The notes under the pieces: generated by a model
The model's database searches: none
Told to the model about the DNA's origin: nothing
Seen by the model: the letters and a program-made list of their open reading frames with translations, nothing else
Assembly: GCA_951406725.2 (NCBI GenBank)
Contig: OX597830.1
Coordinates: forward strand, 16,368,001 to 16,432,000
Length of the DNA: 64,000 nucleotides
Direction: 5' to 3'
Source: Octopus vulgaris
Taxonomy: Eukaryota
Position numbers and translations under genes: made by a program
Shown: positions 19,921 through 39,853 of the stretch, in pieces
Numbering within the stretch: position 1 is the stretch's first letter
Layout of the letters: each line of letters starts with the position of its first letter

Positions 19921-20014
19921 ATAAATGCGCTAAAAATCAAGCCCTATTCTTTTTAAGCTTCGTTAAGTGTGAAAAAGATGGATCGTTCGCCCGTGTACAG
20001 TGTTCAGACAGCCT
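19921..20014 (+). CDS. Gene A coding exon 2: TY domain 1, N-half (NKCAKNQALFFLSFVKCEKDGSFARVQCSDSL)
   Basis: Polypyrimidine tttcag acceptor, CT|gtaagc donor, 94 nt, phase 1 to 2; CxxDGxF..QC motif; same length as exon 5. Confidence 0.9.
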
Positions 20015-20164
20015 GTAAGCAAAATAAGTTCAATATCTGTATTACATACATACACACACACACACACACACACACACACACACACACACACACACACACA
20101 CACATATATATATATATATATATATATATATATATATATATATATATATATATATATATATATA

Positions 20165-20445
20165 TTTCTCTCTTTTACTTGTTTCAGTCATTTGACTGCA
20201 GCCATGCTGGAGCACCGCCTTTAGTCGAGCAAATCGACCCCGGGACTTATTCTTTGTAAGCCCTGTACTTATTCTATCGGTCTCTTTTGCCGAACCGCTA
20301 AGTGACGGGGACGTAAACACACCAAATCCACTCACAAGGCATTGGTCGGCCCGGGGCTATAGCAGAAGATGCCACGCAGTGGGACTGAACCCGGAACTAT
20401 GTGGTTAGTTAGCAAGCTACTTACCACACAGCCACTCCTGCGCCT
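20165..20445 (-). mobile_element. SINE family S1 (internal deletion)
   Basis: Family blocks present. Confidence 0.85.
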
Positions 20446-21023
20446 ATATATATATATATATATATATATATATATATATATATATATATATATATATATA
20501 TATATATATATATATATATATATATATATATATATAATACTATATTTGTTCCACGTCCTCGCGTTGTTGTGTTTTTTTTGTGTTTTCTTGTTTGGATTAA
20601 CTATATACATATATACTTTTATTCTTTTACTTGTTTCCGTCATTTGACTGCGGCCATACACTCACACAAAAAAAAAGATTAGCTACGAGAAATAACTCAG
20701 TGACTAATGGCATGTATTTGAACAGCAGATAAATATAGATGTATCAAATACCATACAGCATAAATTTCTATATCTAAAATTATCTCGGCCTCTAGTTGAT
20801 GTCTCATAATTACAAAATGTTAAGACCACCTCTAAATGAGACGGGAAGATAATCTCAAGTATCAATAATTCGCCTAGGTTGACATACTAAGTAGTTAAGG
20901 GACAGGATTATAGTCTGGACATAACCCAGAGAGTAGTGTTTCTGCCTCAGTATGTGTCATCAGCACCAAAATTGTCCAGCATTACCTCTAGTGCCCAAGG
21001 GACTAGTGCCCTATGGTAAAAGA

Positions 21024-21177
21024 GTAGGACATTTTTATGTCGTTGGACATTTTTATGTCGTAGGACACTTTTATGTCGTAGGACATTTTTATGTCGTTGG
21101 ACATTTTTATGTCGTAGGACACTTTTATGTCGTAGGACATTTTTATGTCGTAGGACACTTTTATGTCGTAGGACATT
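21024..21177. repeat. 18-bp minisatellite (GTAGGACATTTTTATGTC) x about 8.5
   Basis: Directly visible, with three unit variants. Confidence 0.95.
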
Positions 21178-21306
21178 AGCATAGTTTAAACAAAAATTGA
21201 TCCAAAGAAATAAGTTCATATACATTCCATTAGCGAATTTATGAACATATACAGCTATGTCAAATAGAATAGGACAGAACTTTTTGATTTATTAAAATTC
21301 ACTCTA

Positions 21307-21735
21307 CAGTTTTTTCTAGAGGTGTCATATGAAATTGTCACCCATAATTATGACCCTAGTATCGATCTATTGCATTTCAATCTTTTTTAGGGTTAGGGTT
21401 AGTTAGGGTTAGGGTTAGTTAGGGTTAGGGTTAGGGGTGGGGGAAGGGTATCTTTTTTTTCTTCACAAATGTAAATAAACTCAATCTGTTTCTTAAATGA
21501 GGGACATATTCATACGGCACAGAATGTTTTTTACCTCAATAGACGTCAGTGATTGGTTGAAATTGCAGAAATTGGAGAGAAAAAACCAGCAAATATCTTA
21601 CAAACTGTAGAATTTTCTCAATAAAGCCAAGAGAAAAAGATGTTTTATAAACACATTCTACCAGTATACGAAGTTTAAAATTTTTTAGTTACCTAGAAAT
21701 TATGTTAAAAATTGCCGTTCAAACCGAAAAGATCC
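21307..21735. mobile_element. GGATC-TIR MITE, left end truncated, with (TTAGGG)n
   Basis: Right TIR ccgttcaaaccgaaaagatcc; body matches the family. Confidence 0.88.
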
Positions 21736-21884
21736 AGAAATTGTTGAAGAACCACTACTCTTCAAACGTAACCCTGCCTAAAAATAAAACCCTTTTCTGT
21801 ACATTACTGACTCTCATTTGTCGCACTTGCCATAAAGGATGCTATGAACCAGTGATCGGCCCGTTTTAAACTTGTTCACGCGGC

Positions 21885-37095: not shown

Positions 37096-37271
37096 GTAAG
37101 TAGATTTTAAGGCAATTATCTAAGAAATATAGAAATAAAGGCCTGTGTTTCCTTCCTTAATGAAATTTCATATTTACATCCAGCTTCATATTTTACGTCC
37201 TGAATACGAAGTCTTCTCTGATATTGAAACGTTAGTCTATTTAATCACTGAACATCACTTTATCATTATAC

Positions 37272-37695
37272 ACAGTCGAACCAATTCTACTATATGGCTC
37301 AAAAACCTGGACGTTATCAAAGAAGCTTGAGAGGCGGTTGGATGGAACTTACACTCGCCTCCTTATGAGAGCTTAAAATCTATCATGGAAGCGTCATCCA
37401 ACCAAAATGCAAATATATGGGAAACTACCAACTGTGTCATCTCTTGTGAAAGGTAGGAGAGTCCAGTTTGCTGGACATTGTTGTAGAGCTGAAAACGAGG
37501 TAATTTCTACTCTTCTCTTCTGGAAGCCATCTGCTCGCGATACCAGAGGGCGCACACTCTCCTACCCTGATGTAATCTCCAGGGATACAGGTATCCAGCA
37601 ACAGGATCTCCATAATGCTATGATGGACCGTGAAGTCTGGCGTAACATAGTAAATTCCATTGTCTCGAACACGGTCGAACAATGATGATGATGAT
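37272..37695 (+). mobile_element. 5'-truncated RTE-type LINE 3' end
   Basis: LDGTYTRLL..SWKRHPTKMQIYG..RRVQFAGHC..MMDREVWR; (GAT)n tail. Confidence 0.8.
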
Positions 37696-38452
37696 TATAC
37701 AAGAAATTAGGAAGCCTCTTTTTGGTTACTTGACCAAATGCAAATAGCCAAATTGTCCTCCTTACCACATAAAAACAGGAAACATAGGATAATGCTGTAC
37801 TTGATGTACTCGTAAAAGGGTAGACGATTACCGCTAGAATGCCTTTGATCCCAAGCCGGTTCCAGCAGGGTTGACCTGGGGCTAAGCAACAACACACGTA
37901 TACACAGACCGAGCTAACTAGAAAGCCTCTGCTAAAAATAACAACCAAATACCCCTTAAATTACTCCTTACTGCCTTAAATAAAAAATGAGACATTGGTA
38001 ATCTTCCATACCGTAAAAAGACGGGGTGGTTACAGCTGGAACGCTTTTCAACAAAGATTCGTCCCATCAGTATTGAAGTTGGACTAAATCACAGCAGATA
38101 TTATAGTTAAAGGATTAATTCAAATCCAAGTAGATGTGCTGTGATTTGTATATGACTTAGTCAGGTTAAAGAAACTGTGATTATCGTCTTTGCAGATCCA
38201 CGAGGACTTATGAGATCATAAATATATATCATGGCAAAGTATATTCTTTGCCATAATCATAATTATTTGATACTAATCACTAGGCATGGTTATATAGTTA
38301 AGAAGTTCGCTATAAAGCCTTGGTTCCACTGCATGACACTTTGGGAAAGTGTCTTCAGTCGTAGACTCAAGTCAACCAATAAGTTTTAGTTAAAAACCCG
38401 AGTTAACAGGAATTCCATGATCACGAAGTTGCACTGCAATTTTTATTTATTA

Positions 38453-38889
38453 TCTCTCTATATAAACGGCAGTTTATCTGTCTGTGTGTCTGTGTGTCTG
38501 TCAGGTTGTACCCTCACCCTGACCACGGCTTTCAACCGATTATGATGAAACTTGACACACACATAGCCCAACGTCATAATTCAAAACTAACGCAGCGAAA
38601 ATTTTGAAAAGTTCCCCCAGTTCTGAAAAAAATCGATAAATTCGACATGGGGTCGAGAATCTAAGCTTTTTATATGCAACACATTTTCTGTCTAGGGGAC
38701 ACAACTCGACCATTTTATCGCCCAAAGGACAGCTAGGAACATCGTATACACAGAAGTATTCGAGTGAAGAGAAGACATTGCAACCTACACATGCGCCTTC
38801 GTTCCCTAGAGGGAAAGGACTAGATTGGGATTAGTCGTTGCCTACTAGGGGCTCTTACATACCCGGGCAACGCCGGGCTATGCTGCTAG
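38453..38889 (+). mobile_element. Non-autonomous Helitron
   Basis: 5' TC, subterminal hairpin cccgggcaacgccggg, 3' CTAG, A|T insertion. Confidence 0.8.
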
Positions 38890-39067
38890 TCTTACAATAA
38901 ATCTATGCAGTATGTTTATTGTTTAGATCCACGTTCAACAGCTTATCCATGCTAAGTAAATATCTGCCTCAATTATGTTTGTTAATGTATCAATCATTGT
39001 TTCTATTGGGAAAAAATTATACTTTCTACTGATGACGCTCAAAGAAACAGAAATCTAGATTAAGCAA

Positions 39068-39459
39068 GGGTCTTTTCGGTTTGACCGGCAGTTTTTGCTA
39101 GCAGTGTCATATGAAATTGTCACCCATAATTATGACCCTAGTATCGATCTATTGCATTTCAATCTGTTTTAGGGTTAGGGTTAGGGGTGGGGAAGGGTAT
39201 CTTTTTTTTTCTTCACAAATGTAAATAAATCCAATCTGTTTCTTAAACGAGGGACATATTCATACGGTACAGAATGTTTTTTACCGCAATAGACGTCAGT
39301 GATTGGTTGAAATTGCAGAAATTGAAGAAAAAAGACAACAAATATCTTACAAACTATAGAATTTTCTCAATAAAGCCAAGAGAAAAAGATGTTTTATAAA
39401 CACATTCTACCAGTAGTTTAAATTTTTTTAGTTACCTAGAAATTATGTGAAAAACTGGC
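39068..39459. mobile_element. GGATC-TIR MITE, right end truncated
   Basis: Body matches the family, including ttagggttagggttaggg. Confidence 0.85.
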
Positions 39460-39668
39460 ACTGCTAAGCACTTTTCCTCCGCTACTATGCTTTTTAGAAC
39501 TGTATGCCTATACGTGATACTGTCTCGAGATGAATACTTCAGTTATATGGCTTTCTACAGTTTACACACGTTGAGTAAGGAATACAGATTGTTATTTTGA
39601 ATTAATACTGCTTCCGTTGCTAATAACTAATATTTATTTATTTATTCATTTATTTATTTATTTTCAAG

Positions 39669-39853
39669 ACTGTGCTGTTGACAAAAAAGAAACAAAAAAA
39701 AGAGGAGATTTTTCAAAGAGATTTCGGTGTGAAAAAAACGGCAATTATAAGAAAATTCAATGTCATAAATACAAATGTTATTGCGTAAATAAATTGGGAG
39801 TTCAGGTGTCAGGTACAGTGCCTAAGGCAAAGATCAATTCACTTAAATGCTAA
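39669..39853 (+). CDS. Gene A coding exon 7: TY domain 4 with RGDF, ending in TAA
   Basis: ttttcaag acceptor, phase 1; CAVDKKETKKRGDFSKRFRCEKNGNYKKIQCHKYKCYCVNKLG...LKC*; donor G|gtaagt 1 nt after the stop. Confidence 0.93.

Follow-up and report, generated by a model that had tools for sequence, protein, structure and literature searches.

A predicted four-domain thyroglobulin type-1 gene of Octopus vulgaris with exons more divergent than the introns duplicated with them

Results

Gene structure and predicted product

The region studied, hereafter the window, is a 64,000-nucleotide stretch of the Octopus vulgaris genome (G000:C17:16368001-16432000; genome size 2.8 Gb). It contains a gene, here called W, whose seven exons (11084-39854, forward strand) form an open frame of 258 amino acids in which a hydrophobic leader is followed by four six-cysteine domains. 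The splicing is predicted, as it was deduced from canonical sites and from the annotated protein of a paralog, U (P0009/P0010/P0012). The signal peptide of exon 1 was called by inspection of the sequence, this exon being homologous to the first exon of U. The acceptors of exon 3 (23694-23773) and exon 5 (33935-34028) lie one base further 3' than they seem to at first sight.

11084..11141, + strand: coding part of exon 1, ATG and predicted signal peptide, 19 codons plus 1 nt
19921..20014, + strand: exon 2, first half of thyroglobulin type-1 (Tg1) domain 1; half-domain Pfam score 17.9 bits, under the cut-off
23694..23773, + strand: exon 3, second half of Tg1 domain 1
26196..26381, + strand: exon 4, Tg1 domain 2, 31.9 bits; ortholog in organisms B, C and E
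33935..34028, + strand: exon 5, first half of Tg1 domain 3, 22.9 bits
37016..37095, + strand: exon 6, second half of Tg1 domain 3
39669..39854, + strand: exon 7, Tg1 domain 4, 39.4 bits; stop TAA
46318..46430, + strand: putative last exon, 3' untranslated, by homology to the last exon of U; 3' limit uncertain

The domain encoded by exon 7 is strongly basic (17 K+R among 60 residues), and the putative last exon carries polyadenylation-like hexamers at 46378 and 46419. The full-length W protein was not found in protein collections among the matches listed (150 of 803 in the largest listing), so W seems to be unannotated, apart from the partial O. bimaculoides protein P0007. The N-terminus of the latter looks unrelated and it appears to read through the exon 4 donor; its gene model is probably incomplete. 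Four RNA runs on 19901-39900 were dominated by repeats, and the 15 joints listed out of 1640 included none between exons; RNA set X17 had no coverage over exon 4. Neither result implies that the gene is silent.

Domain identity, fold and loop motifs

In a profile search, exons 4, 5 and 7 passed the curated cut-off of PF00086 (20.6 bits). The predicted structure of exon 4 reached a predicted local distance difference test score (pLDDT) of 84 and has the N-terminal helix, two-stranded sheet and three loops of the Tg1 fold. Its ten best structural matches were all Tg1 domains, and the matches included those of saxiphilin (Z 8.4, root mean square deviation (rmsd) 1.8, 59 aligned), p41 (Z 7.0, rmsd 2.4, 55 aligned), thyroglobulin and IGFBP. 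The fold evidence for W is that of domain 2; a two-domain model of U had a pLDDT of 89. The 24 cysteines of W include Cys-x-Cys junctions at residues 77/79 and 197/199, given here as sequence positions. A signal peptide, two six-cysteine domains and a Cys-x-Cys junction give each half of W, or module, a layout resembling that of the tick thyropin IrThy.

According to the accessible part of PMC10889554, loops L1-L3 of thyropins form the protease-binding wedge. The glycine before the second cysteine (L1), which we ourselves equate with the glycine named in that paper, is present in 94-97% of 32 outside relatives and gone from every domain of U and W. The L1 proline is kept in domain 3 and in U and gone from domain 1, and the L2 Gly-Ser, kept across the wider family, is lost in most U and W domains. 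The Trp-Cys-Val core motif is likewise absent, its tryptophan being replaced by Val, Phe or Tyr in U and W; outside relatives mostly carry Tyr at this position, which thus represents a subfamily trait. Among the 30 non-cysteine positions conserved in the 32 outside relatives, 19 are kept by the first module (W1), 20 by the second (W2) and 17 by U, while the relatives keep 19-30.

Divergence of the duplicated exons and introns

Exons 2-4 (W1) and exons 5-7 (W2) form an internal duplication, with homology extending from about 17400 to 27700. The hand counts of an initial annotation of the window were reproduced for exon 2 against 5 (50/94 nucleotides and 11/30 amino acids identical), exon 3 against 6 (48/80 and 9/26) and exon 4 against 7 (123/186 and 32/60, with 4 synonymous differences among the 32 shared residues). 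The conserved scaffold that it described also held, as the 12 cysteines per module, the exon lengths (94/80/186), the phase and the GT-AG sites are all kept. The block 19200-19348, noted as nearly identical to 32872-33020, matches at 147 of 149 positions, and the flanks of exons 3 and 6, put at about 75-80% by eye, measured 152/191 and 106/139 identical.

The claim drawn from these counts, that the introns are closer than the exons, was confirmed, with caveats. W1 and W2 differ at 139 of 360 exon positions and at 263 of 1307 positions in the inner and downstream intron blocks (K, the divergence per site, 0.18-0.28; Fisher p 3e-12). However, intron identity is uneven and provides no single yardstick, since the upstream intron blocks differ at only 78 of 1233 positions (K 0.066; p 2e-25 against the 263/1307 elsewhere). 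The intron figures come from repeat-masked global alignments in which a block was counted if it had 25 columns or more and an identity of 68% or more, a threshold set because shuffled controls gave blocks of 56-65%. This threshold biases intron divergence low, and only part of each intron aligns (for intron 2, 428 columns counted out of 1920 unmasked bases).

Codons with unchanged residues were nearly as close between W1 and W2 as the inner introns (8/53 differ), and fourfold sites differ at only 3/16, 3/17 and 4/24. In 19 of the 118 codons, the modules share none of the three bases. Frame-shifting indels were rejected as the source of the exon divergence: lengths and frames are kept and gapped alignments brought no clear gain. 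CpG decay was rejected as well, a CpG context being present at 0 of 8 W1-W2 synonymous changes. Separately, about 32 bases spanning the acceptor and first codons of exon 4 (26188-26219) are identical to the start of exon 7, also in organisms B and C, possibly a short conversion tract within coding DNA.

Comparison with orthologs

The excess of exon divergence was recovered between orthologs. In organism E, one contig over exon 4 showed at least 25 differences in 186 exon positions and at most 27 in 394 intron positions (p 0.012; 40 of 53 alignment rows listed, all unplaced differences being assigned to introns). This excess does not come from intron conversion, because conversion between paralogs would raise the divergence of ortholog introns. 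Counted by hand, the exon 4 changes comprise 6.5 synonymous and 18.5 replacement changes, i.e., a synonymous divergence (dS) of 0.20 and a nonsynonymous divergence (dN) of 0.14. Fourteen residues changed, every one as in P0007, and of the 18 codons that changed, 6 did so at 2-3 bases, where 14% would be expected (p 0.03). The dN of about 0.14 is at or above the genome-wide dS of O. bimaculoides versus O. sinensis (0.123; PMC10925132), although the excess is not significant (p 0.2-0.3). Exon 4 replacements run at about the genome neutral rate even though a quarter of the codons are frozen.

P0007 is identical to exon 4 at 45 of 60 residues. The 15/60 residues that differ exceed the 12/142 of the U orthologs (p 0.003), and the comparison with U's own domain (6/60) gave p 0.053. 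Organisms B and C showed 5 changes in 286 bases, too few for a test. In two controls, introns run at roughly 0.4-0.6 of the synonymous rate; the accessible part of PMC12737323 lists confounders of the kind tested here.

Tests of selection

Site models were fitted to W1, W2 and U over 118 codons with our own implementation, distinct from PAML and HyPhy; U exon 2 has one extra codon, and one U codon was dropped. Pairwise divergence between W1 and W2 did not place dS below dN (dS 0.64-0.77, dN 0.49-0.56), and "far more than neutral" therefore overstates the exon divergence; gene-wide omega (dN/dS) was 0.8. M2a was nonetheless preferred over M1a, twice the log-likelihood difference (2dL) being 18.4 (p 1e-4, F3x4) or 13.0 (p 1.5e-3, F1x4), and M8 over M8a (p 2e-5 to 3e-3). 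The M2a signal persisted when double-nucleotide mutation was allowed (p 0.002 and 0.01) and after dropping the 14 least certain codons (p 5e-4), and 0 of 112 null simulations reached 2dL 18.4. Module domain B carries most of the signal (p 4e-5 alone).

M2a assigned 24% of codons to an invariant class, 52% to a neutral class and 24% to a fast class. Fourteen of the 17 high-posterior sites fall in loops, which by a cysteine-landmark definition make up 68 of 118 sites (p 0.03). These sequence comparisons suggest that about a quarter of the codons are under positive selection, mostly in the loops. Fast and frozen codons are intermixed (lag-1 autocorrelation 0.10, p 0.14), a pattern unlike that of long tracts.

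For a null with synonymous rate variation to fit, the neutral distance has to be about 0.93, and the inner introns give a value 3-4 times smaller. When the neutral distance was fixed at 0.41 (intron K 0.24 x 0.123/0.072), 0.5 or 0.6, selection won despite synonymous rate variation (p 4e-7 to 1.5e-3). Inner-intron K multiplied by 1.7 gives about 0.4-0.5, near the neutral distance estimated by the site models (0.48-0.53).

The initial annotation had proposed positive selection, and had named a dS similar to or above dN and much higher than intron divergence as the sign of an old duplication with recently converted introns. Pairwise averages take literally this form (0.64-0.77, 0.49-0.56 and intron K 0.07-0.28), and by these averages, taken over the module, the rate of protein change is close to the synonymous one; the ortholog excess and the site models still favor selection.

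Mosaic introns and gene conversion

The introns are mosaics. The tracts concerned, and an orphan copy of exon 1 (X), are as follows.

17407..17966, + strand: part of intron 1; identity about 95% with 28990-29547 (intron 4), 98% with the orphan copy 61238-61813
19126..19682, + strand: intron 1 block, likely conversion tract, 91-97% identical to 32804-33806; contains 19200-19348
33732..33934, + strand: 3' end of intron 4, partner-switching tract, 5/179 different from U and 30/179 from module 1
51856..51904, + strand: orphan copy X of exon 1, then intron-1-like DNA at 61020-64611, extending beyond the window end

Only three copies of the 17407-17966 block were found in the genome, with pairwise differences of 31/572, 11/572 and 30/572. 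Partner switching was significant by permutation over 206 polymorphic sites (p 2e-4; W1=W2 p 0.003; W1=U p 0.13). X is itself mosaic, U-like around exon 1 (51538-52137, 16/600 differences) and W-like in intron 1 (11/572). No copies of exons 2-4 were found in the 100 kb downstream of X, which is possibly a chimeric remnant or a conversion donor.

Since the exon 4 flanks of organism E (at most 27/394) are far closer than those of W2, the duplication predates the organism E split. The 94-97% intron blocks are as young as that split or younger, and the near-identical block is therefore no clock for the duplication; upstream paralog K is 0.066, with some tracts 2-3% apart, against an ortholog K of 0.072 taken from another intron. 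The 94-97% block was rejected as a date for the duplication, as fixing K at 0.06 costs 18.6 log-likelihood (lnL) units. In the inner introns, paralogs were not closer than orthologs. Gene conversion is the simplest reading of the near-identical blocks and mosaic tracts, with constraint as an alternative. The initial annotation had offered conversion as the alternative to selection; the mosaic tracts indicate that conversion also occurred, and that it probably made the very block used as yardstick. A search of G000 with exon 4 gave 6 matches and no additional close donor. The intron blocks were rejected as transposon copies, since 17170-19070 and most of 19100-19750 have only local matches. An inverted copy of the intron block 19369-19528 / 33585-33658 (82-97%) lies at 15732-15918 and adjoins a repeat insertion.

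Gene cluster and other elements

U is a one-module sister gene ending about 8 kb upstream of the window, and was recovered as sister of both W modules with support of 100/100. Its proteins, P0009 (Octopus vulgaris), P0010 ("thyroglobulin") and P0012 ("U24-ctenitoxin-Pn1a-like"), bear automatic database labels; they have 142 amino acids, 130 of them identical between species. The far flanks of W and U are only 70-80% identical. More distant members, genes A, B and D, lie in the same cluster on C17 within 600 kb, and U, A and B share exon phases with W. A and B (P0006, P0004) have an extra N-terminal Cys-rich domain, keep the family motifs and are about 77% identical to Argonauta; relatives are also found in nemerteans, in a bivalve and in a centipede. 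In the tree, the U/W stem measures 1.08 and the module branches 0.4-0.8, against about 0.3 from Argonauta to gene B. Together with the motif loss, these long branches indicate that the U/W lineage left the ancestral role and kept changing.

Genes A and B (G000:C17:15790000-15800000 and 15903000-15912000) are a young pair. Their N-terminal Cys-rich domain also evolves faster than its introns (dN and dS about 0.20; 137/166 positions identical in exon 1 against 95-98% in introns 2-4); omega is 0.49 in the Tg1 part. Gene D (G000:C17:16181900-16245900) is a more divergent member with three domain exons across 64 kb. Elsewhere, L035 (C17:65.81 Mb) and L036 (C3:14.17 Mb) have the same translation over the matched stretch of a Tg1 exon, which reflects either recent duplication of the locus or duplication in the assembly. 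A tandem array of six cathepsin-L-like exon sets (G000:C10:25238000-25394000, L063-L068) is a candidate self target family.

The window also contains a miniature inverted-repeat transposable element-like sequence of about 415 bp with TTAGGG repeats between its 24-bp terminal inverted repeats (copies at 4180-4591, 9194-9617, 25445-25861 and 48801-49220; partial copies at 21307-21735 and 39068-39457). On the reverse strand, 43848-44552 holds two reading frames which we take to resemble the C-terminal part of a non-long terminal repeat retrotransposon protein.

Discussion

We consider it fairly probable that W encodes a secreted octopus protein of four Tg1 domains whose halves were driven apart by selection on the loops, and whose 5' introns were homogenized by conversion. 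The exons are about twice as divergent as the inner introns, likely because selection diversified the predicted enzyme-binding loops while conversion kept parts of the introns alike; about half of the exon/intron contrast stems from slow or converted introns. A two-domain U/W lineage would have split from conserved cluster genes of IGFBP-N + Tg1 + Tg1 type and lost the family-wide loop motifs. An internal duplication of 12-14 kb, older than the organism E split, would then have doubled the module. Ectopic exchange may have kept the promoter, exon 1 and introns 1/4 at 2-8% divergence, while the inner introns drifted to about 20% and the exons to 33-47%. About a quarter of the codons would have stayed frozen and half would have changed nearly neutrally, the remaining quarter evolving far more quickly, chiefly at the three loops with which solved thyropins bind protease.

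Several results weigh against this interpretation. The site models use three sequences and our own code, and pairwise omega is not above 1 (0.63 by NG86, 0.83-0.85 by maximum likelihood). Module domain A alone gave p 0.16. With free synonymous rate variation and a free clock, the test fell to p 0.066 (lnL -1120.5 without selection vs -1119.2). Synonymous changes were enriched beside fast codons (7/15 vs 4/28, p 0.03, for one window size out of three), as clustered mutation would produce. Between orthologs, the exon 4 dS is above dN, albeit from just 6.5 changes. The control pair A/B has a dS 2.5 times its intron K (0.13 vs 0.051), so that an excess of exon over intron divergence proves little by itself in this cluster. 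As to function, the loss of the L1 glycine and of the L2 Gly-Ser weakens the inhibitor interpretation.

The alternative that survives best, which we rate as rather unlikely, is relaxed constraint: only the cysteine scaffold and a few core residues would be selected, the rest drifting at the synonymous rate beside alignable introns that are slow or converted. The gene-wide omega of 0.8 agrees with it, as do an ortholog dN not significantly above the genome-wide dS, introns at 0.4-0.6 of dS in both controls, the lost family motifs and the absence of W from the protein matches listed. Yet plain M1a is rejected, and the version with rate variation requires the neutral distance of about 0.93 while fourfold sites differ as little as reported above; moreover, seven open exons and 24 cysteines have remained intact.

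It is very improbable that the exon divergence simply reflects the true age of an old duplication, without diversifying selection, all introns having been reset by later conversion: the conversion tracts are real and pairwise dS (about 0.65-0.77) is far above intron K, but the exon excess also exists between orthologs, where paralog conversion would act in the opposite direction, codons that kept their residue come close to the inner introns in similarity, and the far flanks of W and U are also just 70-80% identical. We give equally little credence to clustered or locally raised exon mutation (multi-nucleotide events, or tiny conversion tracts from unseen donors) mimicking selection, a reading in line with the codons changed at all three bases, the synonymous changes beside fast codons and the gain of 15.8 in 2dL of the rate-variation model over M1a, but at odds with the selection signal that remains under double-nucleotide mutation (whose rate falls to near zero under M2a), with the lack of CpG context and with the failure to find another close donor in G000.

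What W does may be proposed tentatively, from its sequence. Its most likely role, which we hold with less than even confidence, would be to inhibit proteases of the papain family from prey, parasites or microbes, with a separate target enzyme for each domain; as Tg1 domains serve many functions, a non-protease ligand is possible. A more elaborate scenario seems doubtful to us: W as an octopus-specific four-headed inhibitor in an arms race, from a lineage that gave up loop motifs which other invertebrate phyla retain, its domains retuned by strong selection to distinct foreign enzymes or to a non-protease ligand, while the copies stay co-expressed through ongoing conversion of their promoter, signal exon and first intron and selection shields the domain exons. 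If the main reading is true, W would represent a cephalopod case of a fast-diversifying secreted Cys-rich family and a pointer to biotic conflict with prey, parasite or microbe proteases, and its four domains would serve as natural variants on a common scaffold with which thyropin specificity could be mapped. Paralog introns, for their part, make a poor neutral clock in tandem clusters.

Comparison with known systems

Exons outrunning introns are a known pattern, for which we found no report in the octopus thyroglobulin-type family; nor did we find any report of selection in octopus Tg1 genes in the literature searched, most subscription journals lying outside it. The accessible part of PMC7693380 describes a 227-aa Tg1 protein in the O. 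vulgaris posterior salivary gland proteome, whose length fits the A/B type better than W (258) or U (142), and the main text of PMC13669787, as far as accessible, does not mention thyroglobulin.

Each W module resembles IrThy, a tick salivary thyropin (MEROPS I31; PMC10889554, in part), in its two six-cysteine Tg1 domains and Cys-x-Cys linker. Unlike IrThy, W has two modules, has lost the L1 glycine in all four domains and the L1 proline in domain 1, and has no Trp in Trp-Cys-Val. The accessible part of that paper contains nothing on selection, and reports that equistatin has several domains with different targets. W shares Pfam family and fold with equistatin, the p41 invariant-chain fragment and saxiphilin, but is only about 30% identical to them and has no transferrin or membrane part.

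As in snake venom PLA2, SSP and conotoxin genes, the exons of W outrun its introns within a fixed cysteine frame and behind a conserved signal-peptide exon; in conotoxin genes, too, exons are accelerated relative to introns. For some pairs of snake venom and serum protein genes, KA/KS above 1 has been described (PMC6609765, PMC6062510, accessible parts), whereas the pairwise omega of W stays below 1. Finally, divergence peaks under gene conversion are known from red/green opsin and colobine RNase1 (PMC3924837, accessible part). W resembles these genes in that its introns were probably homogenized by conversion while its exons keep their differences, but differs from them in that only its 5' part would have been homogenized, the inner introns having escaped and lying about 20% apart.

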